Below, in pieces: positions 1,105 to 33,405 of a stretch of 33,775 bases of DNA. Numbering within the stretch: the stretch's first letter is position 1; every line of letters starts with the position of its first letter. The translations under genes were made by a program, and so were the position numbers. Origin of the DNA: a virus (lineage: Duplodnaviria > Heunggongvirae > Uroviricota > Caudoviricetes); the IMG/VR virus record IMGVR_UViG_2671180456_000007, positions 1 through 33,775 of that record; one strand, 5' to 3'. The notes beneath the pieces are model-generated. The model saw nothing but the letters and a program-made list of their open reading frames with translations. It was not told where the DNA came from and did no database searches.

Positions 1105-1111
1105 GGACGAT

Positions 1112-1864: not shown

Positions 1865-1877
1865 ACGGAGGTAATAC

Positions 1878-6327: not shown

Positions 6328-6337
6328 ATCCCGGTTT

Positions 6338-7659: not shown

Positions 7660-7666
7660 AAAGAAT

Positions 7667-7763: not shown

Positions 7764-7769
7764 AGAGAA

Positions 7770-7798
7770 ATTATACGCGCCACAGTCAGTTTGTGAAA
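7770..7798 (-). promoter_or_regulatory. Sigma70-like promoter on the minus strand: TTCACA, 17-nt spacer, TATAAT
   Basis: Minus-strand -35 TTCACA (plus 7793-7798) and -10 TATAAT (plus 7770-7775) with a 17-nt spacer; A/T-rich UP-like sequence upstream on the minus strand. Confidence 0.5.
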
Positions 7799-7872
7799 AT
7801 GTGAAGATATTCAGAATTTTTATGCCATTACCGGTTTTAACCAACAGGATTATCGGTGGGCATGAAAGAAAA

Positions 7873-7905
7873 CCCCGGTATCTGCTGATACCGGGGTTTC
7901 TCTTT
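7873..7905. terminator. Bidirectional intrinsic terminator hairpin (10-bp stem CCCCGGTATC/GATACCGGGG, loop TGCT) flanked by T-rich tracts on both strands
   Basis: Perfect 10-bp inverted repeat with a 4-nt loop; TTTCTCTTT follows on the plus strand and TTTTCTTTC on the minus strand. Confidence 0.55.
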
Positions 7906-8275
7906 AGCATGGCAGAAATGTGTTTCATGCTTTTCGGGCGAAGGATATCCGACTTCTGTACGGAATGGCAAGTGGCGGTTAATTTATTCAGGGGAAGGCT
8001 GTATGGGAAAAGGTGGCGGTAAGGCACACACGCCTCGTGAGGCGAAGGATAATCTCAAATCCACGCAGATGATGAGCGTGATTGATGCGATTGGTGAGGG
8101 ACTGATAGAAGGTCCGGTGAAGGGACTGCAGAGTATCCTGGTGAACAAAACCCCGCTGACGGACACGGACGGTAATCCCGTGATACACGGTGTGACGGCG
8201 GTCTGACGCGCCGGGGAGCAGGAGCAGACACCACCGGAAGGCTTTGAGTCCTCCGGTGCTGAAACCGGACTGGGC

Positions 8276-9919
8276 GTGGAAGTGACGAAGGCAAAACCGG
8301 TGACGCGCACCATTACGTCCGCGAACATTGACCGCCTGCGGGTTACCTTCGGGGTGCAGTCACTGGTGCAGACCACGTCAAAGGGTGACCGAAACCCGAC
8401 ATCCGTCCGCCTGCTGATTCAGTTACAGCGTAACGGTAACTGGGTGACAGAAAAGGATGTCACCATTAACGGCAAGACCACCTCGCAGTTTCTGGCGTCG
8501 GTGATTCTGGATAATCTGCCTCCCCGTCCTTTTAACATCCGGATGGTCCGGGAGACAGCGGACAGCACCACGGACCAGCTGCAGAATAAGACGCTGTGGT
8601 CGTCATACACCGAAATCATCGATGTGAAACAGTGCTACCCGAACACGGCCATTGTGGGGCTGCAGGTGGATGCGGAGCAGTTCGGCGGCCAGCAGATGAC
8701 GGTGAACTACCATATCCGCGGTCGCATCATCCAGGTGCCGTCAAACTATGACCCGGAAAAACGCACGTACAGTGGTATCTGGGACGGCAGCCTGAAACCG
8801 GCATACAGCAACAATCCGGCCTGGTGTCTGTGGGACATGCTGACTCACCCGCGCTACGGCATGGGAAAACGTCTGGGGGCGGCGGATGTGGACAAGTGGG
8901 CGCTGTATGCCATCGGGCAGTACTGCGACCAGACGGTCCCGGATAGTTTCGGGGAGACCGAGCCGCGGATGACCTTCAATGCGTACCTGGCACAACAGCG
9001 TAAGGCATGGGACGTGCTCAGTGATTTCTGCTCGGCGATGCGCTGTATGCCGGTATGGAACGGCCAGACGCTGACGTTTGTTCAGGACCGCCCGTCGGAT
9101 GTGGTGTGGCCGTACACCAACAGCGATGTGGTGGTGGATGATAACGGCGTGGGTTTCCGCTACAGCTTCAGTGCCCTGAAGGACCGGCACACGGCGGTGG
9201 AGGTGAATTATACCGACCCGCAGAACGGCTGGCAGACCTCCACGGAACTGGTGGAAGACCCGGAAGCCATACTGCGCTACGGACGCAACCTGCTGAAGAT
9301 GGACGCGTTCGGCTGTACCAGCCGCGGTCAGGCCCACCGTGCCGGACTGTGGGTGATAAAGACCGAACTGCTGGAAACGCAGACGGTGGATTTCACGCTC
9401 GGGTCTCAGGGGCTGCGGCACACACCCGGTGACATCATTGAAATCTGTGATAACGACTATGCCGGGACCCTGACCGGCGGACGTGTCCTGTCCATTGATG
9501 CTGCCACCCGCACTCTGACGCTGGACCGTGAAGTGACACTTCCGGAGACCGGTGCCGCCACGGTGAACCTGATTAACGGCAGCGGTAAGCCGGTGAGTGT
9601 GGACATCACCGAACACCCCGCGCCGGACCGGATACAGGTCAGTACCCTGCCTGATGGTGTGGAGACATACGGGGTGTGGGGACTCTCCCTGCCGTCACTG
9701 CGCCGTCGCCTGTTCCGCTGTGTCTCCGTCCGGGAAAACACGGACGGCACCTTTGCCATCACGGCGGTGCAGCACGTACTGGAAAAAGAAGCCATCGTGG
9801 ATAACGGTGCCCGCTTTGAGCCGCAGTCAGGTTCCCTGAACAGCGTCATCCCACCGGCAGTGCAGCACCTGACGGCCAGTATCTGGCGCAGGCGAAATGG
9901 GACACGCCGCGGGTGGTGA
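8276..9919 (+). CDS. J: J protein central fragment (the frame is open from 8207; GTG at 8276 is the first possible start)
   Basis: 547-aa ORF with lambda J-like sequence ([29 protein letters not shown]... [29 protein letters not shown]...). Confidence 0.6.
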
Positions 9920-11454
9920 AGGGTGTGCGCTTCAGTCTGCGCCTGACCAGTGGTAAGGGAACGGATGCCAGACTGGTGACCACCGCCATCACCGCAGACA
10001 CGGAGCACCGTTTCAGCGGCCTGCCGCTCGGGGAATACACCCTGACGGTGCGGGCGATAAACAGCTATGGCCAGCAGGGTGAACCTGCCACCACCACCTT
10101 CCGGATTGCCGCACCGGCAGCACCGTCGCGGATTGAGCTGACGCCGGGCTATTTTCAGATAACCGCAACGCCGCATCTTGCCGTTTATGACCCGACGGTA
10201 CAGTTTGAGTTCTGGTTCTCGGAAAAGCGGATTGCGGATATCAGGCAGGTTGAAACCACAGCACGCTATCTTGGCACGGCGCTGTACTGGATAGCCGCCA
10301 GTATCAATATCAAACCGGGCCATGATTATTATTTTTACGTTCGCAGTGTGAACACCGTTGGCAAATCGGCATTCGTGGAGGCTGTCGGTCGGGCGAGCGA
10401 TGATGCGGAAGGTTACCTGGATTTTTTCAAAGGAGAGATAGGGAAAACACATCTGGCTCAGGAGCTGTGGACGCAGATTGATAACGGTCAGCTTGCGCCT
10501 GACCTGGCTGAAATCAGGACGTCCATTACGGATGTCAGCAATGAAATCACGCAGACTGTCAATAAGAAACTGAAAGACCAGAGTGCGGCAATCCAGCAGA
10601 TACAGAAGGTTCAGGTTGATACAAATAATAATCTGAACAGCATGTGGGCTGTGAAGCTGCAACAGATGAAGGACGGACGCCTTTATATTGCGGGTATCGG
10701 TGCCGGTATTGAGAATACGCCAGCAGGAATGCAGAGTCAGGTGCTGCTGGCGGCAGACAGGATTGCGATGATTAATCCTGCGAATGGCAACACAAAGCCG
10801 ATGTTTGTTGGTCAGGGCGATCAGATATTCATGAACGACGTGTTCCTGAAACGCCTGACGGCTCCCACCATTACCAGCGGCGGTAATCCTCCGGCATTTT
10901 CCCTGACACCGGACGGAAAACTGACCGCTAAAAATGCAGATATCAGTGGCAGTGTGAATGCGAACGCCGGGACGCTCAACAATGTCACAATTAATGAGAA
11001 CTGTCAGATTAAGGGGAAACTGTCAGCCAACCAGATTGAAGGCGATATAGTCAAAACAGTGGGTAAGGCTTTTCCGCGGGACTCCCGGGCACCGGAGCGG
11101 TGGCCATCAGGGACCATTACCGTCAGGATTTATGACGATCAGCCTTTTGACAGGCAAATTGTTATTCCGGCGGTGGCATTCAGCGGCGCTAAACATGAGC
11201 GGGAGAATAACGATATTTATTCGTCATGCCGCCTGATAGTACGGAAAAACGGTGCTGAAATTTATAACCGTACCGCGCTGGATAATACGCTGATTTACAG
11301 TGGTGTTATTGATATGCCAGCTGGTCGCGGCCACATGACGCTGGAGTTTTCGGTGTCAGCATGGCTGGTGAATAACTGGTATCCCACAGCAAGTATCAGC
11401 GATTTGCTGGTTGTGGTGATGAAGAAAGCCACCGCAGGCATCAGTATCAGCTGA
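9913..11454 (+). CDS. J: J protein C-terminal fragment (fibronectin-like repeats and receptor-binding end)
   Basis: 513-aa ORF; ...[54 protein letters not shown]... is lambda J-like. Confidence 0.6.
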
Positions 11455-11473
11455 ATTTTATAACCCATATACG

Positions 11474-11500
11474 GGCGCCAGAAATGGCGCCTTTTTTATT
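11474..11500 (+). terminator. Rho-independent terminator after J (stem GGCGCCA/TGGCGCC, loop GAAA, T6 tract)
   Basis: GGCGCCAGAAATGGCGCCTTTTTTATT immediately downstream of the J stop codon. Confidence 0.65.
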
Positions 11501-11521
11501 GCAGAAAAGCGAGAGGTAATT

Positions 11522-12121
11522 ATGCGTAAAGTTTGTGCAGCCATTTTGTCCGCAGCCATCTGTCTGTCCGTATCCGGTGCGCCTGCATGGGCGTCTGAAC
11601 ATCAGTCCACACTGAGCGCGGGGTATCTTCATGCCCGTACGAACGCTCCCGGCAGCGATAATCTGAACGGGATTAACGTGAAATACCGTTATGAGTTTAC
11701 GGACGCGCTGGGGCTGATTACGTCCTTCAGTTATGCCAATGCTGAGGATGAGCAAAAAACGCACTACAGCGATACCCGCTGGCATGAAGATTCCGTGCGT
11801 AACCGCTGGTTCAGCGTGATGGCGGGGCCGTCTGTACGCGTGAATGAATGGTTCAGCGCGTATGCGATGGTGGGTGTGGCTTACAGCCGTGTGTCGACTT
11901 TCTCCGGGGATTATCTCCGCGTAACTGACAACAAGGGGAAAACGCACGATGTGCTGACCGGAAGTGATGACGGTCGCCACAGCAACACGTCTCTGGCGTG
12001 GGGGGCTGGCGTGCAGTTTAACCCGACCGAATCCGTGACCATTGACCTTGCTTATGAAGGTTCCGGTAGTGGTGACTGGCGAACGGATGCATTTATTGTT
12101 GGTATCGGATACCGTATCTGA
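11522..12121 (+). CDS. lom: Lom outer membrane protein (Ail/Lom family beta-barrel)
   Basis: 199-aa ORF with a signal peptide (MRKVCAAILSAAICLSVSGAPAWA) and a C-terminus ...AFIVGIGYRI typical of lambda Lom; lambda-like position downstream of J; RBS GAGAGG. Confidence 0.9.
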   Translation: MRKVCAAILSAAICLSVSGAPAWASEHQSTLSAGYLHARTNAPGSDNLNGINVKYRYEFTDALGLITSFSYANAEDEQKTHYSDTRWHEDSVRNRWFSVMAGPSVRVNEWFSAYAMVGVAYSRVSTFSGDYLRVTDNKGKTHDVLTGSDDGRHSNTSLAWGAGVQFNPTESVTIDLAYEGSGSGDWRTDAFIVGIGYRI

Positions 12122-12224
12122 CAACAGACGCCGATTTATCTTCTGTAAATATTGTTATGATACGCAGGTTCATCCACCTTATGGGGTGAACTGCGTTTGA
12201 GGAAACGTAAAGTTACACTGTCCT

Positions 12225-12258
12225 GAAGCCCGTGGCGTCACTGCTGCGGGCTTTTTTT
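12225..12258 (+). terminator. Possible rho-independent terminator between lom and the tail fiber gene (stem AGCCCG/CGGGCT, T7 tract)
   Basis: GAAGCCCG ...14 nt... CGGGCTTTTTTTAT; the loop is large, so confidence is moderate. Confidence 0.4.
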
Positions 12259-12272
12259 ATTGGTGGAAAAGT

Positions 12273-15200
12273 ATGACAGTAAAAATTTCTGGCGTGCTTA
12301 AAGATGGCACAGGAAAACCAGTACAGAACTGCACCATTGTGCTGAAGGCCAGACGAACCAGCAGCACGATGGTGGTGAACACGGTGGCCTCTGAAAATCC
12401 GGATGAAGCCGGACGTTACAGCATGGATGTTGAGCATGGTCAGTACAGCGTCACCCTGCTGGTTGAAGGTTTTCCGCCTTCACATGCCGGGACCATTACC
12501 GTCTATGAAGGTTCCAGACCAGGTACGCTGAATGATTTTCTCGGTGCCATGACGGAGGATGATGTCCGACCGGAGGCACTGCGCCGCTTTGAGCAGATGG
12601 TGGAAGAGGTGTCACGTAACGCCTCCGCGGTTGCACAGAATACGGCAGCCGCGAAAAAATCAGCCAGCGAGGCGGCAACTCATGCAACCGATGCTGCAGC
12701 CTCAGCACGTGCCGCCAGCACGTCAGCCGGACAGGCCGCGTCGTCGGCTCAGTCAGCGTCTTCCAGCGCAGGAACGGCATCGACAAAGGCCCGTGAAGCA
12801 GCAAAAAGTGCTGCTGCAGAGTCATCAAAAAGCGCGGCAGCTACCAGCGCCAGTGCCGCGAAAACGTCAGAAACGAATGCCGCAGCATCACAAAAATCGG
12901 CAGCCACTTCTGCATCCACAGCGACCACGAAGGCGTCAGAAGCTGCCACCTCGGCACGGGGTGCGGCGGCCTCAAAAGAGGCAGCGAAATCTTCAGAAAC
13001 GAATGCATCATCAAGTGCCAGTAGTGCAGCTTCCTCGGCAACGGCGGCAGGAAATTCCGCGAAGGCGGCAAAAACGTCCGAGACGAACGCTAAGTCTTCT
13101 GAAACAGCAGCGGGACAGAGCGCCTCAGCTGCGGCAGGTTCAAAAACAGCGGCTGCATTATCTGCCAGTGCCGCGTCAACAAGTGCCGGGCAGGCCTCAG
13201 CCAGTGCCACCGCCGCCGGAAAATCGGCAGAAAGCGCCGCATCATCCGCTTCAACAGCCACAACGAAGGCTGGCAAAGCCACTGAGCAAGCCACTGCAGC
13301 AGCGAGGTCTGCTTCTGCAGCAAAAACCTCTGAAACAAATGCAAAGACTTCAGCAGACAATGCTGCTTCCTCTAAGGCAGCAGCCGCATCGTCAGCCAGT
13401 TCAGCGGCGTCATCGGCATCATCTGCGTCTGCTTCAAAAGATGAGGCGACCAGACAAGCGTCAGCAGCGAAAGGTAGTGCCACGACAGCAACAACGAAAG
13501 CATCAGAGGCGGCAGGCAGTGCGACGGCTGCATCTCAGAGCAAAGTTGCTGCTGAATCCGCGGCAACGCGCGCCGAGACAGCAGCAAAACGGGCAGAGGA
13601 TATTGCATCCGCCGTGGCGCTGGAGGATGCGAGCACGACGAAAAAGGGGATAGTACAGCTCAGCAGTGCGACCAACAGCACATCTGAAACGCTGGCCGCA
13701 ACGCCAAAAGCAGTTAAAGCAGCCAATGACAATGCGAATAGCCGATTGGCGAAGAATCAGAATGGCGCTGATATCCCCGACAAGGCCCGCTTCCTGAGTA
13801 ACATTAATGCTGCCAGCAAGACTGATATGGCCTCTAAACGAGGAATGAAGTATTCGACAGTGAATGCGCCCGCAGGAGTTGAAGCAGGTAAGTTTTATCC
13901 TGTGGTCATTCGTCGTTCTGCTGGATTCGTCGATGAATTAGCATCTAGGGTAACGATAAGCACAAGTTCAAGAACAGGAAACCACAGACTGAACAACTGC
14001 GAGTTCAACGGATTTGTCATGCCCGGTGGTTGGACTGACAGAGGAAAATATGCTTATGGGATGTTTCACGCATATACTGCAAGTGAACGTGCTATTCATT
14101 CTATCATGATGGGTAACAAAGCGGATGATCTTTGTTCTGTGTTCTATGTTGAAGGTGAAGCGTTTCCTATTGCTGTATATGTAGAAGAAGGCTTATCTGT
14201 TGTTGTACCATCTGCCGATTATGTCGTCGGACAAACAACTTACAAATGGGGCGCCACTAACCCTAAAACAGAATGCGTTGCCGCTGATACTATACTTGAT
14301 TTCTCAAATGGTAGAGGGTTTTATAGTTCGCACTCATTCCTCACAAATGCAGACATTAGCGGTAATAAGGTTTACGCTAATGATGAAGTTATTGTCCGTA
14401 GTCAGAATGCGTTAAGGATGATTGCTGGCGATTACGGTGTCATATGGCGAAATGATGGAGCAAATACTTACTTGCTCATGACTGATAAAGGCGACCAGTA
14501 CGGTGGCTGGAACGGTCTTCGACCATTTGCAGTAAATAACGCAACAGGTGAAGTGACGATCAATACACCACTTAATTCTCCAAAAGGGGTTAAGGGGAAC
14601 TCTGATACAGCTACGAAACTTCAGACTGCAAGAAAAATATCCGGTGTTCCATTTGATGGCTCTACTGATATCACTTTAACCGCCGCGCATGTTGCCGCTT
14701 TCGCAAGAAGAGCAACAGGGTCATATGCTGATGCTGATGGCGGCGTGCCGTGGAATGCTGAATCTGGTGCTTATAATGTAAATAGAACGGGCGACAGTTA
14801 TATTCTTGCCAACTTTTATACTGGTGTAGGTGGTTGCCGTACGCTTCAAATTAAGGCTCACTATAAAAATGGTGGGTTGTTTTATCGTTCATCTCGCGAT
14901 GGCTATGGTTTTGAAAGTGGTTGGGAGCAGGTTTACACGACTGGATTTAGACCTCAGCCGGCTGATATAAACGCACCAACCGCTGCCGACGGATGGTTAA
15001 ATAGTGGTAACGGAACAGCATTTACGACTGCTCAGTTTATAACGTGGCTAAATAATCAGGGTGCATTTTCAAACAAATATTGGATTGCACGGTGCTCATG
15101 GTATTACGCCAACAATAATTATATAGACGACACTGGTTGCGGTAGGATCGATCTATCTGGTTCCGTGATTGAGGTGTTTAGTAATAAGACAACAAGCAAT

Positions 15201-17315
15201 TACACTATTCGTGTTACAACGACAACAACATCGGGTCATGGTGGCGTTAATAATGCGGAATTTATTTATGTGTACAATGGCAGTGATTACTCGCCAGGCT
15301 GGCGTCGTTCTTATAATACTAGAAACAAACCAACAGCTTCTGATGTAGGAGCATTATCGCTTTCTGGAGGAGCGTTAACTGGCGGATTAACTGCTGCTGG
15401 CGAGATTATTTCAAAATCGGCGAATGGTCTGCGCATTGCCTACGGAAACTACGGATTCTTTATCCGAAACGATGGTTCAAGCACATACTTCATGTTGACC
15501 GATTCGGGTAACAGCCTGGGAACCTATAATAGTTTAAGGCCGCTTATCATTAACAATGCCAATGGTGCTGTTACGATCGGTAATGGACTCAATGTTACTG
15601 GCGGCATCAATGGTAGTTTGAACGGTAATGCTTCAACAGCTACGAAGTTGCAAACAGCGAGAAACATCAATGGTGTTAAGTTTGATGGTTCAGGCGATAT
15701 CAATATTAATACATTGGTATCTCGTGGCCGAGTTACGGCGTTAAGCGGCTCTACTCAAGGCACTGCTGGCATTCAAATGTATGAGGCGTACAACAATAGC
15801 TACCCGACCACGTATGGCAACGTATTGCACATGAAAGGTGCGAGTGCTGCTGGTGAGGGCGAGTTGCTTATTGGCTGGAGCGGAACGGATGGTGCTCATG
15901 CACCGGTTTATGTTCGTTCACGCCGTGATACTTCGACAGCGAACTGGTCTGGCTGGGCGCAGATCTACACAACTGCTCATAAACCCACTGCGGCTGATGT
16001 CGGTGCGTTGCCGAGCGGTGGCGGCACACTTTCCGGCGCACTCACATTATCTATGGCTGCGCCAAGTGTCCAGTTACGAGGGCAAGGTACGGACACCAGA
16101 CAGTACATCATGGCTTACAGAACCGATGGCGCTACATCATGGTATGTGGGCAAGGCTAACAACGGCTCCGATAATGCGATGTTCTGGAACTATACCGGCT
16201 CCAACGGAATTGAATTGGCTGCCGATGGCAATGTGCGTATTAATGCGAAGGGTAAACAGTTTACGTTCGCAAACAATGGGAACTTAGGTCTTGTTGCTTC
16301 GTTGGATCAGAGTTCAGTTCCACAGGGTACTTACCATCAAGTAGCTCTTAACACTGGCACTGTTGGTGGTAAATCGTACCTTCGAAAATTCCGCGGCGGC
16401 AACACAGACACCATTTGGCATGAGACGGTTCAGGGCGGCTTACTTCGTTGGGCAACCGGCAATGCTGATGAGCAAGAAGAACTGTCTATCAGTACTGGCT
16501 ATGGTGTTCGAGCAAGAGGTGAAATCACTTCCCTTAGCGCCAATGGTCTAAGAGTGGCTTACGGGAATTACGGCTTCTTTATTCGCAATGATGGCGGAAC
16601 AACTTACTTCATGCTGACTGCTTCTGGCGACAAGTTCGGAAGCTGGAATGCTTTGCGTCCAATGTACATTAACAACGCTTCAGGCGCGGTTACGATGGGG
16701 AACGGGTTGTCGCTTGCCGGTGGCTTAAATGTCACGAGCGGAAATATCCGAATCCCGACGTCGAGTACATCTTGGATCGACATGAGAAACAATGCCGCTC
16801 TGTCTAACAGTTCTGCGGTTGCCACTTCCTCTGCATCGGCCATTATTCGTCAGGAGCACGCCGATCGTCATTATTTTGTTGGTGGTTTAGGCAACTCTCA
16901 GTTCGGGTTCTACATGATTAACAAGTCACGAACCGCGAACGGCACGGATGCGAACGCATACCTCCAGAATGACGGTACTTGGGTTTGCGGCGGTAATGGC
17001 AGCTTTAATGACGTTTATATCCGTTCTGACCGCCGTAGTAAGCGCAATATTCGCAAGATTGACCGGGCGCTCGACAAGCTGGAGCAGATCGAAGGTGTTC
17101 TCTACGAGATTCAGGTCTGTGGCCGTTATGAGCAGTCTGGTGGCCTCATCGCTCAGGATGTCCAGAATGTTCAACCTGAACTGGTAACGGTCGACCATAA
17201 CGATCAGTCAGGAGAGCCTCGTCTGCGTCTTAACTACAACGGCGTTATCGGCATGTTGGTTGAGGCTGTCAAAGAGCTGCGCGAGGAAGTGCGCGAACTG
17301 AAGGCAAAAATGTAA
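12273..17315 (+). CDS. stf: Side tail fiber protein, chimeric: lambda Stf-like N-terminus, Ala/Ser-rich repeat segment, three ~100-aa T-even-like distal fiber repeats, C-terminal intramolecular chaperone (peptidase S74-like) domain
   Basis: 1680-aa ORF; N-terminus MTVKISGVLKDGTGKPVQNCTIVLKAR... is lambda Stf-like; repeated AKTSETNA motifs; three repeats of the form (A)NGLR(I/V)AYGNYGFFIRNDG..TYFMLT..G...NSLRP..INNA.GAVT; C-terminal ...DVYIRSDRRSKRNIRKIDRALDKLEQIEGVLYE matches the SDxxxKxNI autoproteolytic chaperone motif. Confidence 0.85.
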   Translation: MTVKISGVLKDGTGKPVQNCTIVLKARRTSSTMVVNTVASENPDEAGRYSMDVEHGQYSVTLLVEGFPPSHAGTITVYEGSRPGTLNDFLGAMTEDDVRPEALRRFEQMVEEVSRNASAVAQNTAAAKKSASEAATHATDAAASARAASTSAGQAASSAQSASSSAGTASTKAREAAKSAAAESSKSAAATSASAAKTSETNAAASQKSAATSASTATTKASEAATSARGAAASKEAAKSSETNASSSASSAASSATAAGNSAKAAKTSETNAKSSETAAGQSASAAAGSKTAAALSASAASTSAGQASASATAAGKSAESAASSASTATTKAGKATEQATAAARSASAAKTSETNAKTSADNAASSKAAAASSASSAASSASSASASKDEATRQASAAKGSATTATTKASEAAGSATAASQSKVAAESAATRAETAAKRAEDIASAVALEDASTTKKGIVQLSSATNSTSETLAATPKAVKAANDNANSRLAKNQNGADIPDKARFLSNINAASKTDMASKRGMKYSTVNAPAGVEAGKFYPVVIRRSAGFVDELASRVTISTSSRTGNHRLNNCEFNGFVMPGGWTDRGKYAYGMFHAYTASERAIHSIMMGNKADDLCSVFYVEGEAFPIAVYVEEGLSVVVPSADYVVGQTTYKWGATNPKTECVAADTILDFSNGRGFYSSHSFLTNADISGNKVYANDEVIVRSQNALRMIAGDYGVIWRNDGANTYLLMTDKGDQYGGWNGLRPFAVNNATGEVTINTPLNSPKGVKGNSDTATKLQTARKISGVPFDGSTDITLTAAHVAAFARRATGSYADADGGVPWNAESGAYNVNRTGDSYILANFYTGVGGCRTLQIKAHYKNGGLFYRSSRDGYGFESGWEQVYTTGFRPQPADINAPTAADGWLNSGNGTAFTTAQFITWLNNQGAFSNKYWIARCSWYYANNNYIDDTGCGRIDLSGSVIEVFSNKTTSNYTIRVTTTTTSGHGGVNNAEFIYVYNGSDYSPGWRRSYNTRNKPTASDVGALSLSGGALTGGLTAAGEIISKSANGLRIAYGNYGFFIRNDGSSTYFMLTDSGNSLGTYNSLRPLIINNANGAVTIGNGLNVTGGINGSLNGNASTATKLQTARNINGVKFDGSGDININTLVSRGRVTALSGSTQGTAGIQMYEAYNNSYPTTYGNVLHMKGASAAGEGELLIGWSGTDGAHAPVYVRSRRDTSTANWSGWAQIYTTAHKPTAADVGALPSGGGTLSGALTLSMAAPSVQLRGQGTDTRQYIMAYRTDGATSWYVGKANNGSDNAMFWNYTGSNGIELAADGNVRINAKGKQFTFANNGNLGLVASLDQSSVPQGTYHQVALNTGTVGGKSYLRKFRGGNTDTIWHETVQGGLLRWATGNADEQEELSISTGYGVRARGEITSLSANGLRVAYGNYGFFIRNDGGTTYFMLTASGDKFGSWNALRPMYINNASGAVTMGNGLSLAGGLNVTSGNIRIPTSSTSWIDMRNNAALSNSSAVATSSASAIIRQEHADRHYFVGGLGNSQFGFYMINKSRTANGTDANAYLQNDGTWVCGGNGSFNDVYIRSDRRSKRNIRKIDRALDKLEQIEGVLYEIQVCGRYEQSGGLIAQDVQNVQPELVTVDHNDQSGEPRLRLNYNGVIGMLVEAVKELREEVRELKAKM

Positions 17316-19689: not shown

Positions 19690-20211
19690 TTATTCTTCGA
19701 ACAATTTTTCGATAGATTTTGTAGAATAGAACAAAGAACGCTCGTTGTTACCAACCAGCTGGATAAAGCCCAAACTTTTATAAAACGCCCTGGCTTTATC
19801 GTTCAACGCCTCAACGAAAAGCCCATGAATGCCTACCGCAAGAGATGCATTGTACACAACACGCATTGCGTGAGTTACAAGCATTGAGCCAAGCCCCTGA
19901 CCTTGAAGAGATTTGTCCAAAGCCAGTCTGCCTAAAGTGATACTTGGGACATTCCGATAAGGCACTTTCTTTTGCTGACTCTTTGAAGGTAAGGTTTCTT
20001 TCTCAAAGCAGCTGCCTGACAAAGTGTAATAACCTAATACCTTTGGTATTTCTTCTTTAGTGCAAAGCACATAAGCGCGAAGAATTTTTCCTTCATGCTG
20101 TCTTTTTAAGTGGTTGGTCAAAAATGCGTTTAGTGACTCTTCGCCGCAATCAAAACCGTTTAGATCATAATCGTTCTCTCCAGAGAAAATCTCGATCGTC
20201 GTATTGCTCAC
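19690..20211 (-). CDS. GNAT-family acetyltransferase toxin (TacT/AtaT/KacT-like, tRNA-acetylating type)
   Basis: 173-aa ORF; acetyl-CoA-binding motif region GRLALDKSLQGQGLG; immediately downstream of, and co-directional with, a DUF1778-like antitoxin gene. Confidence 0.8.
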   Translation of the reverse strand: MSNTTIEIFSGENDYDLNGFDCGEESLNAFLTNHLKRQHEGKILRAYVLCTKEEIPKVLGYYTLSGSCFEKETLPSKSQQKKVPYRNVPSITLGRLALDKSLQGQGLGSMLVTHAMRVVYNASLAVGIHGLFVEALNDKARAFYKSLGFIQLVGNNERSLFYSTKSIEKLFEE

Positions 20212-20218: not shown

Positions 20219-20488
20219 TTACTCCATGCTTTTCAGACGATTGGCAGCTCGTTTCAGCTTGTCGTTCGGTGCTGGAGGATTGCTTATAGCATCCATAACC
20301 AGATTCCAGGACTCTTCACTTAGAACCAGTCTACGGTGTTGCTCTATCACCTTCACGGCACGTTCGGATGCACTGCTAACCATGAACTGGGTAATGCTCT
20401 GGTTAGACATTGCGGCAGCTTCCTCGATGATGCTTTTATCGTCATCGGTTAATCTCAAATCGATGCGCTGCTTTTTCAGTGCGGACAT
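20219..20488 (-). CDS. DUF1778-family antitoxin (TacA/AtaR/KacA-like, ribbon-helix-helix)
   Basis: 89-aa ORF MSALKKQRIDLRLTDDDKSIIEEAAAMSNQSITQFMVSSASERA...; RHH-like N-terminus; 7-nt gap to the toxin gene. Confidence 0.8.
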   Translation of the reverse strand: MSALKKQRIDLRLTDDDKSIIEEAAAMSNQSITQFMVSSASERAVKVIEQHRRLVLSEESWNLVMDAISNPPAPNDKLKRAANRLKSME

Positions 20489-20543
20489 GTGTACCCCCTG
20501 ATGGCCGGTGATGTAGGAAGGCCATCATTGCTCTCTATTTAAA

Positions 20544-20637
20544 CTGAGTTTTCGACTCAAAGGTTATTTAACTGGGCTATAGCCCATTGCGTATGTGTCA
20601 TCAAATTGTGTACGGCAATTTACCGTACTCGTAATAT
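20544..20637. promoter_or_regulatory. Cluster of short palindromes in the parA/toxin-antitoxin divergent region (GGGCTATAGCCC at 20573-20584; GTACGG-N7-CCGTAC at 20619-20637; TGAGT-N5-ACTCA at 20544-20558): candidate operators or centromere-like sites
   Basis: Perfect inverted repeats read directly in the 320-bp AT-rich spacer between the divergent antitoxin and parA genes. Confidence 0.35.
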
Positions 20638-20807
20638 AGAGATGATTGTCACTTTTTTCAACAGACAAATGAAAACAGTTACTAGCAATAGGCAATAACA
20701 ACCTACTAAATAACCTTTACACCGCAGCCGTAGGCATTTAGGCTATATCACATATAAGAAAACAAGTTGTTTCAGACGATAATTATATACGCAAAGGGAA
20801 CTCTCCA

Positions 20808-21476
20808 ATGACCAAGATCTTTGTGGTTGGCGGCACAAAGGGCGGGCCTGGCAAATCCACTGTTGCCCAGCAAATTGCCGTTTGCCTGAAAGTCAAAAAG
20901 AAGAAGAAGGTTTATATCACTGATATAGATATTCAGCGCACGACAACAAGCTGGTGTGAAGACCGTAGACAGAACGAAGACCTTGAGCTGATTCCTTTTG
21001 CATACGTTCAGGATGACATCATTAAGCACCTAAAATCGCTTCAGGGTAGAGCTGAGTTTGTAGTGGTAGATGCTGGTGGCTTTGACTCCGAAATTCAGCG
21101 ACAAGCGATGCTGATGGCCGACGTTATCATTATCCCGCTTCGTCCTAAGCGTCGTGATTTGAAATCTCTGCGTGACATCGATCCTATTATCGACAATGTT
21201 CGTAATGTAAACGATAAAGTGAAGGTCCGCGCGGTCATGAACCAGTGCCCGGCTTTGCCATCACAAGTGTCTCGCATTCTGGCGGCTAAAGAGATTGTTG
21301 AGACGTTTGGCATCGAGTCTGCGCCAGTCAATCTATATAACCGCAACGTCTACGATGATGCGGAAGAGTCTGGTCGTTCTATCTTTGAAATGACCGGTAG
21401 CGAGCGCGACAAAAAGGCGGAAGCCGAGTTTGAAGAATTTGTAGATTATCTGTTGAGTCTGGAGGAAGAAGAATAA
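20808..21476 (+). CDS. parA: ParA/Soj-family partition ATPase (small, type Ib-like)
   Basis: 222 aa; deviant Walker A motif GGTKGGPGKST near the N-terminus; followed by a small RHH-like protein gene overlapping by 1 nt. Confidence 0.85.
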   Translation: MTKIFVVGGTKGGPGKSTVAQQIAVCLKVKKKKKVYITDIDIQRTTTSWCEDRRQNEDLELIPFAYVQDDIIKHLKSLQGRAEFVVVDAGGFDSEIQRQAMLMADVIIIPLRPKRRDLKSLRDIDPIIDNVRNVNDKVKVRAVMNQCPALPSQVSRILAAKEIVETFGIESAPVNLYNRNVYDDAEESGRSIFEMTGSERDKKAEAEFEEFVDYLLSLEEEE

Positions 21477-21835
21477 TGTCCATGAAAATGGGTGACCTAG
21501 CAAAGCGCAAAGAGCCTGATGCACCGGCCAAGAACACAACTCCTTTGCGCCAACCAGTCAGACCACAGGGACGCCCGACTCGTGGCAAAGAGAAAATTAA
21601 AAGCCGCACAATGTCACTGGAGGACGAATACTTCGAACTGCTGGAGATGATGAAGTTCATCCCTCGCTTCGAGAAGTTCACTCGTTCTGACGTGATTCGT
21701 GCTGCTATTTTCCATCTGGCAGAGAAGTCACCGCAGGAAATCGAGGACATCGTGAAATTGAATGAGGCGATCACCGCTGCCGATGTCACGATGCGTACCG
21801 ATGAAATCAAACGAGAGTTGATGAAGAAAGGTTAA
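21476..21835 (+). CDS. Small ParG-like centromere-binding protein (basic disordered N-terminal tail plus ribbon-helix-helix-like C-terminus)
   Basis: 119 aa; Lys/Arg/Pro-rich N-terminal 45 aa then ...KSRTMSLEDEYFELLEMM...RSDVIRAAIFHLA; TAATG coupling to parA. Confidence 0.55.
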   Translation: MSMKMGDLAKRKEPDAPAKNTTPLRQPVRPQGRPTRGKEKIKSRTMSLEDEYFELLEMMKFIPRFEKFTRSDVIRAAIFHLAEKSPQEIEDIVKLNEAITAADVTMRTDEIKRELMKKG

Positions 21836-21838: not shown

Positions 21839-21873
21839 TTATGCATTGGCGCAATGTACGCGCCAATGCATAA
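21839..21873. terminator. Bidirectional terminator hairpin between convergent genes (14-bp stem TTATGCATTGGCGC/GCGCCAATGCATAA, loop AATGTAC)
   Basis: Perfect 14-bp inverted repeat located between the parG-like stop (21835) and the GIY-YIG gene stop (21888). Confidence 0.6.
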
Positions 21874-21887: not shown

Positions 21888-22655
21888 TTATGCCGCGCTA
21901 ACACTATGTTCAGTCCTAACCACCCCAACCTTCACAAAAGGGCTACCGTAGCTTGGTGGCTTCTTGATTAATTTGCCTACATACAGTTTTCTAATATGCT
22001 CATCGGCTATTCTGCCAACAAATTCATAACGTTTTGTGTCGGGGCCAAGAGCTATATCCCTTGTAAAGTACTGCTGAGAACCGGCTTTGACCCAGCATTC
22101 AATCTGATAAACTTCCATTATTAGCCCACCATATGTAGAGTAGGCATATTTGAGATTCTCGTCTCTTGGAACCTTTGCCCATACGCCACGCGTAGCTTCA
22201 TATAATGCCAGAGCGGACATTCCTGACTTGTAGGTGCTGTTTAGCAGGAAGGCAAGACCGGCGTGCTCAGGAGCAATTTCAGTTTCCTCTTGCAGCACTA
22301 AGTGATGGTAGGCGTCCAGTGATATTCTGCCCATCATGGAACCACTTCCTCGTACCTTATTCGTAAGCTCTCCGACCCCCATAAGGTCGATGCATGTCGC
22401 CTCAACAAGTTTGGCTGTGGTTTCATCCATACCATGACGAAGTATATCTATGCCTAATTTTTTATTAGCCAAAAGTTCTTTGATCCGCATGGATTTGGGA
22501 GAGTCATCGGGATACTTGATGTGATCGAGACAACGAGTCGATTTGCCTTTTCCTATGTAAAACGGTCTTTTCATCTTGTCTTCTGTATCATAGAGACAGT
22601 AAACATAGTATTTAGCCTTATCCAATGATCTCGCGTATACCGATAAATCGTCCAT
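21888..22655 (-). CDS. GIY-YIG-family nuclease with a ~150-aa C-terminal domain of unknown function (stand-alone, opposite strand)
   Basis: 255 aa; N-terminal motifs KYYVYCLYD ... PFYIGKGKSTRCLDH match the GIY ... YIG ... R ... H pattern of GIY-YIG nucleases; the C-terminal domain (…WAKVPRDENLKYAYSTYGGLIMEVYQIECWVKAG…) was not recognised. Confidence 0.7.
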   Translation of the reverse strand: MDDLSVYARSLDKAKYYVYCLYDTEDKMKRPFYIGKGKSTRCLDHIKYPDDSPKSMRIKELLANKKLGIDILRHGMDETTAKLVEATCIDLMGVGELTNKVRGSGSMMGRISLDAYHHLVLQEETEIAPEHAGLAFLLNSTYKSGMSALALYEATRGVWAKVPRDENLKYAYSTYGGLIMEVYQIECWVKAGSQQYFTRDIALGPDTKRYEFVGRIADEHIRKLYVGKLIKKPPSYGSPFVKVGVVRTEHSVSAA

Positions 22656-23678: not shown

Positions 23679-23721
23679 CTAATACTAGAAAACAATTTGT
23701 TTAAAAAACAAAGGAAAGCAC

Positions 23722-25062
23722 ATGACCGAACTTTGCCATACAGGACGCGGGCTGTCCGAAGAGTTTGATGAAGATTTTCAGAACAGATTGACGGCCTATT
23801 TTTGTCGTGATCACGAGTTTCTTACTCGTGCGGGAGATCTGGTTGTACCTAGCCAATTTGCCAATGCGGCCAATGCCATATTGGTTAATATGGTTTCGGG
23901 CTATTACCGTATGTACAAGAGCGCGCCCTCTTCATCTGCGATTCTGGATATGCTTAAGCGTGCGAAACGCGATAAGACTATCCGTGAGGAACTATTCGCC
24001 GATGTTGTTGCTGCGTTTAAGCGCATCCTTGCAGAAAAATTGTCTGATACCTCGTACATGGTTGACCAGGTATCAACCTTCGCAAAAAGCGTAGCGTTTG
24101 ATGATGCTCTGATTAAGGCTGCTGAACTGAAAGAGAAGGGCGACTTTCAGGGGGCGATGGCAATCATGGCCAAGGTTCAGCAGATTGGATCGAACGAAGC
24201 GACCGGAATCTATGACTACTACACCTCCGCAAGTGAGCGATTGAAAGCGCGTGAATATGAGGCTTCAGAGGAGTATGTGCCAAACAGCATTACAACTGGA
24301 CTCCCTCTGCTCGATAGGTTGCTGTACCAAAAAGGCTGGGCGAAGCGTGAAATGGTGCTCTTCATGGGGTTCGCTAAATCCGGTAAATCGACCGCAATGG
24401 GTGAGTTTTCCATAAACGCAACGCTTGCTGGCTACAATGTTCTGTATCTCTCGCTGGAGGTTCACACCACCATTTTATCCGACCGTTTTGATGCAAGATT
24501 GTCGGAGACAGAAATGTCCAAGCTGGTGGAACGGCGCGATGAGGTTCATCGTAAGTTGGCAGAGTTGGGAGCCACGAAGGGGATTGGTAGTTTGTGGGTT
24601 GTTGAGCGTCCGTCAGGAAGTATGTCACCGGCAGATCTGGATCGTATGCTTAACAGCATGAAAGCCAATGGCATGGTGCCTGACATGGTTGTTGTCGACT
24701 ATGCAGATTTGATGCGTGCCAGTTATGACCTTCGTGATGATCGCGCCAACATACGTAGTATCTATACCGACTTACGTGCTCTTTATGACAAACACAACGT
24801 TGCTGGTATCACGGCATCGCAGACAAACCGTGAAGGTGGCGCGTCAGAAGTTGCCACAATGATGCACGCTGCCGACAACATCGAAAAAGTACGTATTGCT
24901 GACCTGGTAATAACGATCAACAAAACAGAAGAAGAAGAAGCGAAAGGAGAGGCTCGTCTCTACTTTGCTGGTTCACGTAACCAGCAGGGAGGGATCAGCA
25001 TTCGCGTTAAACAAAACCTCGAACAAATGCGCTTCATTGAGCGAATCTTAGACGTTACCTAA
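23722..25062 (+). CDS. DnaB-like replicative DNA helicase
   Basis: 446 aa; Walker A GFAKSGKST, Walker B-like VVVDYADLM, and a RecA-fold C-terminal domain with ...GITASQTNREG...; RBS AAGGAAAG. Confidence 0.85.
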   Translation: MTELCHTGRGLSEEFDEDFQNRLTAYFCRDHEFLTRAGDLVVPSQFANAANAILVNMVSGYYRMYKSAPSSSAILDMLKRAKRDKTIREELFADVVAAFKRILAEKLSDTSYMVDQVSTFAKSVAFDDALIKAAELKEKGDFQGAMAIMAKVQQIGSNEATGIYDYYTSASERLKAREYEASEEYVPNSITTGLPLLDRLLYQKGWAKREMVLFMGFAKSGKSTAMGEFSINATLAGYNVLYLSLEVHTTILSDRFDARLSETEMSKLVERRDEVHRKLAELGATKGIGSLWVVERPSGSMSPADLDRMLNSMKANGMVPDMVVVDYADLMRASYDLRDDRANIRSIYTDLRALYDKHNVAGITASQTNREGGASEVATMMHAADNIEKVRIADLVITINKTEEEEAKGEARLYFAGSRNQQGGISIRVKQNLEQMRFIERILDVT

Positions 25063-26325: not shown

Positions 26326-26400
26326 CAAGTGCCGCTAAAATAAGTAGATGATTACTTATCTTTCTGTAAGAATACTTTCATCTGTTAGCTAGGAGTTGGT

Positions 26401-29845: not shown

Positions 29846-29862
29846 AAACATATCGATAAGTA

Positions 29863-29884
29863 TTTACTTACTTATCTTTTGTGT
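29863..29884 (+). other. AT-rich hairpin GATAAGTA-N6-TACTTATC followed by TTTTG; possible terminator or regulatory palindrome of the TAAGTA family
   Basis: 8-bp inverted repeat 18 nt after the stop of the 29555 gene. Confidence 0.35.
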
Positions 29885-30624: not shown

Positions 30625-30699
30625 GATGGTGTAGCTCAGCGGTAGAGCAGTTGGCTGTTAACCAACTGGTCGGTGGTTCGAATCCACCCACCATCGCCA
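30625..30699 (+). tRNA. tRNA-Asn (anticodon GTT)
   Basis: Manual fold: acceptor GATGGTG/CACCATC, D-stem GCTC/GAGC, anticodon stem GTTGG/CCAAC with loop CTGTTAA, T-arm GGTGG-TTCGAAT-CCACC, discriminator G plus encoded CCA. Confidence 0.8.
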
Positions 30700-30704
30700 A
30701 TTTA

Positions 30705-30791
30705 GGGGAGTTAGTCCGTAGGGGCAGCGGGGTAGACTGTAAATCTACTGTCATTGCGACTCGGGTGGTTCGACTCCATCACTCCCCACCA
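30705..30791 (+). tRNA. tRNA-Tyr (anticodon GTA), class II with long variable arm
   Basis: Acceptor GGGGAGT/ACTCCCC, anticodon stem GTAGA/TCTAC with loop CTGTAAA, variable stem-loop, T-arm GGTGG-TTCGACT-CCATC, encoded CCA; the D-arm region is non-canonical (4-nt linker). Confidence 0.7.
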
Positions 30792-30795
30792 AATT

Positions 30796-30871
30796 GCCGG
30801 TTTAGCTCAGTTGGTAGAGCGTCTGCCTTGTAAGCAGGATGTCAGCGGTTCGATCCCGTTAACCGGCACCA
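30796..30871 (+). tRNA. tRNA-Thr (anticodon TGT)
   Basis: Acceptor GCCGGTT/AACCGGC, D-arm GCTC-AGTTGGTA-GAGC, anticodon stem TCTGC/GCAGG with loop CTTGTAA, T-arm AGCGG-TTCGATC-CCGTT, encoded CCA. Confidence 0.8.
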
Positions 30872-30872
30872 A

Positions 30873-30962
30873 CACAACAGGTAAGAGCATTGGGCGAATC
30901 GGCGATACTGACCCACAAGCCCGTAAATCGATAGAGTCAGACCAGTGCTCTTACCGTTGTGA
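30873..30962 (+). repeat. Long hairpin element B (terminal stem CACAACAGGTAAGAGCATTGG / CCAGTGCTCTTACCGTTGTG), directly abutting the tRNA-Thr 3' end
   Basis: About 20-bp inverted repeat with compensatory changes relative to elements A, C and D; begins 2 nt after the tRNA-Thr CCA. Confidence 0.5.
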
Positions 30963-31013
30963 GGAAGTGCAGCTCTTTGAAGCAACCAGAAGATAAGCAT
31001 CTGGCTTCACAAC

Positions 31014-31092
31014 ACAACGATAAGATCATTACGGTTAATCGTCGTTCATGTGCACAATGACTGGTCGAAAGGTAGTGATCTTACCGTTGTGA
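31014..31092 (+). repeat. Long hairpin element C (terminal stem CACAACGATAAGATCATTAC / GTAGTGATCTTACCGTTGTG)
   Basis: Inverted repeat with the same CACAACG ... CGTTGTG termini as elements A and B. Confidence 0.5.
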
Positions 31093-31191
31093 TGAATGCA
31101 CAGGCTGATGTGCCGCAACTACAGTAGTGCGCGCTTTGCGGGGGTTGCTACAACCCTGTGTCGGAGTTCAGCACCGACCATCACAATAGCT

Positions 31192-31278
31192 GGAGAGTAG
31201 GGAGCATGGTGCTCAAGCGGTCTTGAAAACCGTCCCATTGCGCAAGCGATGATGGTTCGATTCCATTACTCTCCGCCA
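31192..31278 (+). tRNA. tRNA-Ser (anticodon TGA), class II with long variable arm
   Basis: Acceptor GGAGAGT/ACTCTCC, D-stem GAGC/GCTC, anticodon stem GCGGT/ACCGT with loop CTTGAAA, variable arm ATTGC-GCAA-GCGAT, T-arm GATGG-TTCGATT-CCATT, discriminator G plus CCA. Confidence 0.8.
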
Positions 31279-32301: not shown

Positions 32302-33405
32302 ATGAAAAATAGCTTTGACAGAGCACGCGCTGCGGAGAACACCTCAAAAGAGGCGATAGAGTATCTCGAAAGAGCATCTCAAATGCAGGCCGTTATGATC
32401 TCCCAGGTCAGCAATGACATGAGATTCTCGGACGCATTCATGTTATTCACTCGCTTATCTCTGCTCATAACCAGACGTCGGCCAGAGATCGCTGTTCATT
32501 GTATTTTGATACATGTTTTTCCGCACATTGCCGATGTAAAAGTAAGTGATATTAATAGGTTCATGGTGAACCAACTGGTCAACCCACTAATACTGGATGG
32601 CAAAATTGTTATGGGCCGCCGCGTTTTCTCTCTGATGAAGCAGTTCCTTAGCTGGTGCGCCTTCCAGGGGATGATAGACGTGTCACCGTTAAACGATATG
32701 TCACTTAACAAAGTTGCCGGTGGCGCAAAGCCCACGCCCCGCGAGCGGAAGCTGACTGACGCAGAGGTATGGGTGTTCTGGAATATATGGGACTACTTCA
32801 ATGTGTGTGCTGGTACAAAATGGGCGGCCAGGCTATGTCTTGTATCCGCAAGACGACCTGACGAAGTACTGCGGGCTAAAAAAAGTGAGTTCAATCTTAA
32901 GCGTGGGGTTTGGAATCAAGGCAAGAGGAACAAATCTGCCCGTGAGCATTCTCTGCCTTTAAGCTCATTAATGCGCACTTGTATTGAAGAGTTGTTCGAA
33001 TATGGTAAAGACAGCCAGTGGCTCGTGCCTTCGAATAAAAAAATCGGGAAAGACCTTCCTATGTCTAAAGTGGCAATAGCCCAGGCATTACGTCGTATTC
33101 TGGAACGACCAGAACTGATGGAGCTTGAGCCATTTACACCCCGAGATTTGCGCCGTACTGCGCGTAGTTACTTCCCAGCATTAGGCATAAGCCAGGAGGT
33201 ATCACGTAAAATCATGAACCACAGTCTTGAGGGGATAGATCGGGTCTACGACCGGCACGATTATATGGACGAGATGCGAGACGCCTTAGAAAGTTTCTCG
33301 ACGTACATCGCATCAATCGTAGAGCAACCGGATTTAGACGAAATTGACCACAAATTTAAGGGAGATCGTCTATCAACAGAGCTTATTCGTGTAAATTTTT
33401 CATAG
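32302..33405 (+). CDS. int: Tyrosine recombinase / phage integrase (P4-like family)
   Basis: 367 aa; conserved catalytic regions ...LVSARRPDEVL... (box I Arg), ...FTPRDLRRTARSYF... (box II) and ...MNHSLEGIDRVYDRHDY (His ... Tyr nucleophile region). Arg replaces the usual box II His; the N-terminal arm-binding domain is atypical. Confidence 0.75.
   Translation: MKNSFDRARAAENTSKEAIEYLERASQMQAVMISQVSNDMRFSDAFMLFTRLSLLITRRRPEIAVHCILIHVFPHIADVKVSDINRFMVNQLVNPLILDGKIVMGRRVFSLMKQFLSWCAFQGMIDVSPLNDMSLNKVAGGAKPTPRERKLTDAEVWVFWNIWDYFNVCAGTKWAARLCLVSARRPDEVLRAKKSEFNLKRGVWNQGKRNKSAREHSLPLSSLMRTCIEELFEYGKDSQWLVPSNKKIGKDLPMSKVAIAQALRRILERPELMELEPFTPRDLRRTARSYFPALGISQEVSRKIMNHSLEGIDRVYDRHDYMDEMRDALESFSTYIASIVEQPDLDEIDHKFKGDRLSTELIRVNFS

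Follow-up and report, generated by a model that had tools for sequence, protein, structure and literature searches.

The par operon and its ATPase

The window analysed here, 33,775 nucleotides corresponding to positions 1 to 33,775 of the IMG/VR virus record IMGVR_UViG_2671180456_000007, harbours a two-gene locus which we examined as the putative partition (par) locus of an SSU5-like phage-plasmid. It comprises parA, coding for a small Walker-type ATPase, and a partner gene coding for a protein of 119 amino acids (Table 1). A preceding reading of the sequence alone (hereafter the sequence-only reading) had ascribed to ParA the deviant Walker A motif GGTKGGPGKST. This motif is indeed present at residues 8-18, its portion KGGPGKST including the signature lysine and fitting the pattern KGGxxK[ST]. 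The Pfam matches of the protein, MipZ (top), AAA_31 and CbiA, belong to the P-loop ParA/MinD families. In addition, phrog_164 ("ParA-like partition protein") matches at 4e-51, and the NCBIfam model ParA_partition at 1.9e-33, the latter match lying under the model's own cut-off. The best solved relative is ParF of TP228 (1.2e-10), with residues 9-199 of ParA aligning with residues 8-189 of ParF. Since the alignment begins at residue 9 of the one protein and residue 8 of the other, ParA is devoid of the N-terminal domain of type Ia ATPases. In contrast, the type Ia ParA of pMT1 comprises 401 amino acids and carries its Walker A motif at about residue 112.

The stop codon of parA overlaps the start codon of the partner gene (TAATG, at 21476) and the two genes are translationally coupled. 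They are co-conserved in all relatives, and the gene order around them is constant, running from lysis genes through a first cargo slot to parA and the partner gene, and from there through a second cargo slot to the helicase gene. The synteny behind the second slot comprises a 249-amino-acid open reading frame (ORF), a DnaB-like helicase, a primase, a ligase, tRNAs, the integrase and a repressor. A scan of genome contigs yielded only six loci. Both genes are expressed in the Cyrano lysogen of strain LF82, with values of 50 for ParA and 89 for the partner (PMC9928086 supplement). The values given for TerS, hyp58, hyp101 and the helicase in the same lysogen are 7, 5.7, 7.5 and 21, respectively (PMC9928086 supplement).

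Table 1. Coordinates of the par genes, their control elements and neighbouring features in the window.
Feature	Position	Strand	Description
GNAT toxin	19690-20211	-	GNAT domains; variable cargo, transcribed away from par
RHH (ribbon-helix-helix) antitoxin	20219-20488	-	Pfam TacA1, 3.5e-26; divergent from par
Palindrome GGGCTATAGCCC	20574-20585		In 5' leader of the toxin-antitoxin cassette
GTACGG-N7-CCGTAC	20610-20628		Putative operator of the divergent KacA/TacA-type antitoxin; within 20489-21835 but not part of par
Putative par promoter	20716..20748	+	-35-like TTTACA (20716-20721), 17-nt spacer, -10-like TAGGCTATAT (20739-20748)
Conserved palindrome AAGAAAACAAGTTGTTT	20756..20772		Core AAACAA-N-TTGTTT; candidate par operator and centromere-like site
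parA	20808-21476	+	222 aa; small Walker-type partition ATPase of type Ib size; begins MTKIFVVGGTKGGPGKST
ParA partner	21476-21835	+	119 aa; MGDLAK N-terminus, basic disordered linker, probable RHH, two C-terminal helices
Perfect 14-nt inverted repeat	21839..21873		Between the convergent par operon and GIY-YIG-like gene; read as bidirectional terminator
Second palindrome copy TAGAAAACAATTTGTTT	23686..23702		20 nt upstream of DnaB-like helicase gene (23722-25062)
Tyrosine recombinase ("integrase")	32302-33405	+	phrog_1 integrase, 5.9e-47; adjoins helix-turn-helix (HTH) repressor gene cut by window end

The element and its relatives

Between 12.8 and 33.8 kb the window shares 98-99.9% identity with pEC16-2, 95-97% with Cyrano and 86% with SSU5. 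The par locus itself is 99.9% identical to that of pEC16-2, a circular E. coli plasmid of 111.8 kb, 95% to that of phage Cyrano (pLF82) and 86% to that of Salmonella phage SSU5. Over the same 12.8-33.8 kb, identity and synteny with SSU5, pHCM2 and pLF82 across the lysis, replication, tRNA, integrase and repressor modules place the element in the SSU5 supergroup, an established supergroup of phage-plasmids (PMC7969092). Cyrano/pLF82 produces virions and has a copy number of about 5.5 per cell (PMC9928086), and parA of SSU5 is already in use as a screening marker (10.1101/2025.09.12.675607).

To see where members of the family reside, plasmid and chromosomal locations were looked up. Of 5,426 complete E. 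coli genomes, 264 contain the par locus, and each of its 265 places lies on a plasmid, none on a chromosome. Among the plasmids in PLSDB it was retrieved from 723 by DNA search and from 797 by protein search, most of these plasmids being about 110 kb in size and nearly all non-mobilizable. These placements, together with the plasmid state of relatives including Cyrano, bear out, for the family, the phage-plasmid maintenance which the sequence-only reading had suggested; the inference is correct but was already known. Some 5% of the complete E. coli genomes harbour an SSU5-like phage-plasmid, and the family also includes hundreds of plasmids from Klebsiella, Salmonella and Enterobacter. SSU5-like phage-plasmids carry resistance and virulence genes and, to our knowledge, their maintenance functions have not been studied.

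A particular case is pMT1 of Yersinia pestis CO92, a member of the supergroup which lacks parA, the partner gene and the helicase-primase block. It carries a P1/P7-type ParAB, including the above-mentioned ParA of 401 amino acids, in place of parA and its partner, which amounts to a non-orthologous replacement. Elsewhere, hundreds of phage-plasmids of about 110 kb carry the module as a conserved unit between their lysis and replication genes, and it has been found only extrachromosomally. Based on the family to which ParA belongs, the layout of the operon, the plasmid-only location, the expression in the lysogen and the replacement by ParAB in pMT1, we consider it probable that the locus is the active-partition cassette of the SSU5-like phage-plasmid and that it works in the manner of type Ib systems (ParF/ParG, delta/omega).

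It appears improbable, by comparison, that the ATPase acts in positioning or exclusion in the manner of MipZ/MinD, or that the small ORF encodes a RelE/ParE toxin, segregation being accomplished by CYRAN_99 or CYRAN_119/120. MipZ is the top Pfam match of the ATPase and its name is sometimes used in RefSeq, the ParA_partition match falls under its cut-off, and the genome possesses other Par-like genes. Yet structurally the ATPase is best matched by ParF and the operon layout fits type Ib, while the small protein is without RelE/ParE signal. Moreover, pMT1 possesses the ParB-domain genes as well and nevertheless needs a ParAB of its own. The genes in question are located outside the window: CYRAN_99 (Cyrano 89738-90838) encodes a MinD/ParA-like ATPase of 366 amino acids with a lysogen expression of about 92, and CYRAN_119/120 (Cyrano 105144-106492) encode two proteins with a ParB N-terminal domain.

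The sequence-only reading had also pointed to an integrase about 11 kb away, and a tyrosine integrase is encoded 10.5 kb downstream. This gene is conserved across the whole supergroup (Cyrano, pMT1 and the Klebsiella and Moellerella relatives), always beside an HTH repressor gene. Among the 5,426 complete E. coli genomes, however, there is no integrated chromosomal copy of the element. Since the integrase is conserved yet the element is never chromosomal in E. coli, the enzyme would most likely serve to resolve plasmid multimers, or be rarely used, rather than produce a chromosomal prophage. Multimer resolution by a phage-plasmid recombinase is known from Cre of P1.

The partner protein

The partner had been described as possessing a basic disordered N-terminus and an RHH-like C-terminus. 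The former description holds, as residues 1-42 contain 12 Lys/Arg and the predicted local distance difference test (pLDDT) value is below 50 for residues 1-4 and 7-26. The RHH candidate segment, however, is central (approximately residues 41-85) and is followed by two further helices. The protein belongs to phrog_5111, a group of unknown function, and to no Pfam family. Its own family is tiny, since an exhaustive profile search of 1.84 billion cluster representatives yielded merely 18. In the alignment of this family the motif (M/F)-G-(D/G)-L-(A/G)-K at the N-terminus is invariant and precedes a variable acidic or Pro-rich linker and a basic stretch. These are followed by I41-K-S-R44-T-M-S47-L-E49-D-E-Y, which leads into a helix, and by F-T-R70-S-D72-V-I-R75-A-A-I, which opens a second one.

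The succession of strand, helix, loop and TRSDVIRAAI helix is conserved in the family; RHH proteins typically show a strand, a helix and a "G/x-S/T-R-S-E-hydrophobic-I-R-x-A" pattern. The RHH_1 profile gives sub-threshold matches in three of 14 family members (best E = 0.005, residues 49-85) and the aCcr1 RHH model in nine of the 14 (best 1.6e-4), both profiles matching the family in one and the same register. AlphaFold monomer models, which are of low confidence, show helices at 48-61, 70-84, 86-98 and 101-118 while leaving residues 1-47 unstructured. Fold searches with these low-confidence models returned nothing, and the family profile found no significant match among PDB sequences. Neither did hhalign comparisons with Arc, Mnt, CopG, ParG, omega and ParD give a significant match, CopG being the only one to align in the expected register. 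Taken together, the strand-helix-loop pattern and the sub-threshold profiles give weak support to an RHH fold, which we regard as likely. If Leu48 is made to correspond to the final core residue of the strand in CopG, Ser43, Thr45 and Ser47 would face the DNA.

Membership of the ParG family receives no support, as neither Pfam ParG nor ParG in the PDB is matched, whether a single sequence or the profile is used. The type Ib ParA/ParG layout proposed by the sequence-only reading is hence reproduced in the arrangement of the operon but not in sequence similarity to ParG, nor in a repeat array of the ParG type.

In the Cyrano record OV696614 the equivalent of the partner, CYRAN_29, is labelled "RelE/ParE putative toxin", and it is counted as moron/toxin in PMC9928086. 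No signal for such a toxin is obtained in Pfam, NCBIfam, PHROGs or the PDB, and the partner should not be annotated as one.

Conserved control region and dispersed palindrome family

The putative promoter block upstream of parA is conserved in relatives down to 64-68% ParA identity, the spacing "-35, N17, TAGGCT" recurring in loci L007, L008 and L010. A promoter scanner made no call at 20716-20748, where we infer the par promoter. Conserved over the same range of ParA identity is the palindrome AAGAAAACAAGTTGTTT, the only conserved symmetric element of the upstream region and of the module. It is found upstream of parA, with 0-2 mismatches, in every relative which keeps a Ser-x-Thr-x-Ser strand in the partner. 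Across 80 IMG/VR loci there are 78 exact copies of the parA-type sequence, and 1-3 copies of the family occur per locus. Almost all relatives whose locus extends far enough also have a copy downstream of the par genes, and where the annotation was checked (Cyrano, L010) this copy directly precedes the helicase gene. As the palindrome does not fold as RNA (-1.5 kcal/mol, z = -0.16) it is regarded as a putative DNA operator; the same values rule out an RNA element.

Genome-wide counts, in which up to 2 mismatches were allowed, reveal a dispersed family. The assembled Cyrano genome (loci L016, L002, L014, L015) contains 20 strand-hits compared with 0.22 expected, and the Klebsiella relative CP027615.1 (L106-L108), whose ParA is 68% and whose partner is 48% identical, contains 19 compared with 0.22. 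These correspond to about 17 distinct sites, nearly all of them intergenic and 12-66 nt ahead of an operon's first gene. Among the operons concerned are the terminase (two sites), parA, the helicase, cobT, nrdB, tciA and a run of small early-type genes. The extended consensus of the family is CAGAAAACAAnTTGTTTTCTG. The motif-aligned sites share a GATAAT-type -10 box 9-10 nt upstream, which puts the palindrome at about +1 of sigma-70-like promoters. Most operons behind the palindromes are silent in the LF82 lysogen while the par operon is on (PMC9928086 supplement). The literature searched contains no description of a par operator or of this dispersed family.

Beyond the relatives with a full set of sites, a Moellerella plasmid which otherwise lacks the dispersed family possesses a degenerate palindrome 101 nt upstream of parA. 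The motif is retained at 30% partner identity where the strand reads Ser-x-Thr-x-Ser and absent where it reads Gly-x-Met-x-Ser. This covariation of motif and strand, observed in the Moellerella plasmid and distant IMG/VR loci, is suggestive, each case representing a single lineage.

A different sequence was also considered as centromere, the inverted repeat at 21839-21873. It was ruled out as it forms a strong terminator hairpin (-23.1 and -26.2 kcal/mol; z = -5.0 and -6.2) which has a U-run towards the minus strand, and the relatives differ downstream of par. The gene convergent with the par operon at this point (21888-22655, minus strand) encodes a 255-amino-acid protein with an N-terminal LEM-3-like GIY-YIG nuclease domain (5.5e-7). 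It is variable cargo, the slot being occupied by DUF2971 or other genes in relatives.

Proposed mode of action

If the locus is a partition cassette, it would keep the phage-plasmid in both daughter cells in the following way. The partner would dimerise via its RHH domain with the strand IKSRTMSL, directing Ser43, Thr45 and Ser47 towards the DNA. The dimer would bind the palindrome AAGAAAACAAgTTGTTT at about +1 of the par promoter and thereby autoregulate the operon. Its invariant MGDLAKR tail would stimulate nucleoid-bound ParA-ATP, with the consequence that plasmid copies are pushed apart.

The binding of the partner to the par palindrome is a step to which we assign slightly less than an even chance. 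It is favoured by the presence of a perfect-consensus copy at the partner's own promoter, which is moderately active as expected for an autoregulated promoter. It is also favoured by the survival of the degenerate copy in the Moellerella plasmid and by the fact that the motif tracks the Ser-x-Thr-x-Ser strand and is absent with Gly-x-Met-x-Ser. Furthermore, the HTH repressor, the other conserved lysogen-expressed DNA-binding protein identified, has a different palindrome upstream of its gene. Against it speaks that known RHH centromeres are arrays (parH, the omega heptads, parC of pB171), and that the set of sites resembles the regulon of a phage immunity system. Should the partner bind the par palindrome, the about 17 identical sites throughout the genome would be bound too. 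Tentatively, the partner may therefore be a centromere-binding protein and at the same time a global silencer acting via about 17 copies of CAGAAAACAAnTTGTTTTCTG at +1 of phage promoters. In that event a single small RHH protein would link segregation to the maintenance of lysogeny, and this protein would represent an RHH analogue of KorB with a centromere spread over the whole genome.

Alternatively, the AAGAAAACAAnTTGTTT family could quite possibly consist of the operators of another phage regulator, in the manner of the dispersed immunity of P1 C1, with the par promoter being one target among others and the true centromere of the partner located elsewhere or not recognisable by sequence. 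The arrangement of the sites agrees with this, since about 17 of them precede terminase, replication, nucleotide-metabolism and early operons by 12-66 nt, with the -10 box 9-10 nt further upstream, and most motif-bearing operons are silent in the lysogen. In addition, a palindrome of 17-21 bp suits an HTH dimer, known RHH centromeres being arrays and not single palindromes, and pMT1 retains sites in the absence of the partner. Yet the only proteins identified as conserved, lysogen-expressed and DNA-binding are the partner and the HTH repressor CYRAN_45, and the region upstream of the CYRAN_45 gene contains the different palindrome CTGGTAAGTGCTTACCGA and no copy of the dispersed motif. Moreover, the par operon is on while the other motif promoters are off, as would be the case for an autoregulator. 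The pMT1 sites are weak evidence, as pMT1 is very close to the par-bearing pHCM2.

The following observations weigh against the partition cassette as outlined. A short-repeat array is absent next to par as well as elsewhere, as judged by repeat and Tandem Repeats Finder scans covering the locus, the window and the complete genome of Cyrano, in which the repA iterons are the sole tandem arrays. The palindrome is not specific to par. pMT1 (L017, L018), which encodes no partner, keeps 6-7 palindromes at orthologous promoters; owing to its closeness to pHCM2, these retained sites are not decisive. The literature searched holds no stabilisation or binding experiment on this system. Finally, the phage-plasmid segment of this particular window is joined to lambdoid DNA (see below).

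Irrespective of the protein that occupies it, the palindrome is a real conserved cis-site shared with about 17 promoters and thus a testable handle on the maintenance and silence of these elements. It could also provide a sequence usable for incompatibility-based curing.

The divergent toxin-antitoxin cassette and its palindromes

The sequence-only reading had called attention to perfect palindromes in the 320-nt spacer upstream of parA, and both GGGCTATAGCCC and GTACGG-N7-CCGTAC are present there. Their assignment to par as cis-acting sites, however, does not stand, as they belong to the neighbouring toxin-antitoxin (TA) cassette. This cassette of a GNAT toxin and an RHH antitoxin (KacAT/TacAT-type) exists only in a subset of the relatives. 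In the lysogen it is among the most expressed Cyrano genes, with values of about 340-590 (PMC9928086 supplement). The promoter scanner predicts a TA promoter, TTGAAA-17-TATATT, on the minus strand at 20661..20633. GTACGG-N7-CCGTAC sits 5-23 nt downstream of it, at the predicted start of the TA transcript. The 27-bp operator which was co-crystallised with KacA4KacT2, AAATGTACGGTTATTAACCGTACATGA, likewise covers the kacAT transcription start (PMC6698736). Half-sites and spacing of the window's palindrome equal those of the crystal DNA, the 7-nt spacer reading CAATTTA compared with TTATTAA in the crystal DNA. By analogy, the palindrome is presumably bound by the antitoxin allele of the window. 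In the Kluyvera and Enterobacter relatives L004 and L012 the TA allele is a different one, yet GTACGGCATCTTTCCGTAC is retained.

The part of the spacer which contains both palindromes (20489-20710, the left two-thirds) is found in just 145 plasmids. It is absent from SSU5 and from Klebsiella relatives which keep par and have other cargo at this position, homology among the relatives beginning about 100 nt before parA. By our own estimate, the number of occurrences expected by chance in 320 nt is about 0.08 for GGGCTATAGCCC and about 0.9 for GTACGG-N7-CCGTAC, so that the bare palindromes are unremarkable; the hairpin of GGGCTATAGCCC is weak (z = -1.4). Both palindromes do lie between the divergent genes, where a site for the small protein might be sought. 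That either or both of them should serve as its centromere or operator is nevertheless very improbable, given that this part of the spacer is missing from most par-bearing relatives. Furthermore, GTACGG-N7-CCGTAC conforms to the experimentally defined KacA operator type and lies over the predicted start of the TA transcript, and GGGCTATAGCCC is part of the TA 5' leader.

In L004 and L012 the antitoxin gene and the KacA-type operator are separated by a long tandem array of heptad-like TTTTCAG/TTTTTCGA repeats, at a distance of about 150-330 nt from parA on its upstream side. This array is absent from the window.

Comparison with known partition systems

The par system belongs to the type Ib kind, of which it is a hitherto uncharacterised representative, and is accompanied by an unusual operator family dispersed over the genome. 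In accordance with type Ib, ParA has a deviant Walker A motif and comprises 222 amino acids without an HTH domain, and a small downstream gene is part of the operon. The centromere array of that type is absent, and there is a single conserved palindrome. The locus has a close counterpart in ParF/ParG/parH of TP228, which shares with the present locus a small ParA without N-terminal HTH, a small partner gene immediately downstream, a disordered basic N-terminal tail followed by a (here probable) RHH domain, and a candidate operator upstream of parA. Unlike ParG, to which it has no detectable sequence relationship, the partner has 119 amino acids and two extra C-terminal helices. While parH is an array of tetramer boxes of about 100 bp (PMC3130281), the present locus offers one palindrome of 17-21 bp which recurs across the genome.

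Provided that the partner binds the palindromes, the combination of partition with repression of many operons would resemble delta/omega of pSM19035 and KorB/IncC of RK2. Omega combines partition with repression at three promoters (PMC4627068, PMC9499535), and KorB, which does so at 12 RK2 sites, carries a ParA-interacting peptide at its N-terminus (PMC11790492). Omega, however, binds tandem heptads, in contrast to the single palindromes at about +1 of some 17 phage promoters found here, and KorB is an HTH protein acting as a ParB-CTPase sliding clamp. N15 is likewise a phage kept as a plasmid and uses single inverted repeats, IR1-4, as centromere sites (PMC7205306). It differs in possessing a type Ia SopA and an HTH SopB, in having four sites compared with about 17, and in being linear with a protelomerase. 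SSU5, pHCM2 and pLF82 (Cyrano), whose plasmid state is established (PMC7969092, PMC9928086), belong to the same element family and have the locus in syntenic position at 86-95% identity with ParA annotated, but their partner is annotated as "hypothetical" or "RelE/ParE putative toxin".

Lambdoid junction and further features of the window

From position 1 to about 13,718 the window consists of a tail module of lambdoid type (V, G/T, H, M, L, K, I, J and Lom, together with the N-terminal portion of Stf) which is 92-97% identical to lambdoid and Stx prophages and contains no SSU5-type tail genes. Between 11,700 and 13,600 the comparison with a chromosomal prophage gives mostly 0-1 (maximum 9) mismatches per 100 nt. 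Similarity to the phage-plasmid begins at 12,813 and is essentially complete only past 14,400. The junction is situated within a hybrid tail-fibre ORF of 1,680 amino acids (12273-17315), with the crossover at about 13,600-14,400. In the searches of the 5,426 complete E. coli genomes and of PLSDB it is spanned by no top-ranked record. The two parents share about 0.9 kb of tail-fibre sequence at about 92% identity, which is enough either for a real recombination leading to a hybrid or cointegrate or for an assembly chimera.

It is accordingly conceivable, if somewhat doubtful, that in the source strain the par-bearing DNA and a lambdoid prophage form a cointegrate or recombinant, or that the contig is an assembly chimera. 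The lambdoid character of positions 1-13,718, the stretch of near-identity to a prophage and the want of a top-ranked record across the junction agree with this. As regards a real cointegrate, however, 0.9 kb of about 92% identity is a classic site for an assembler jump, and in none of the complete E. coli genomes searched is par chromosomal.

At 30625-31278 the window contains four tRNA genes (Asn-GTT, Tyr-GTA, Thr-TGT and Ser-TGA), compared with three (Asn, Thr, Ser) in the annotation of Cyrano. A second family of intergenic palindromes, (G/A)TAAGTA-N2 or N6-TACTTA(T/C), is represented in the window at 26341-26358 and 29857-29874. Its members are often followed by a T-run and are in this respect terminator-like; Cyrano has seven copies, pMT1 four and the Moellerella plasmid three. 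The related sequence GGTAAGTGCTTACC is found just upstream of the integrase-side HTH repressor gene (L001 35806-35823, outside the window) and may be the repressor's own operator.

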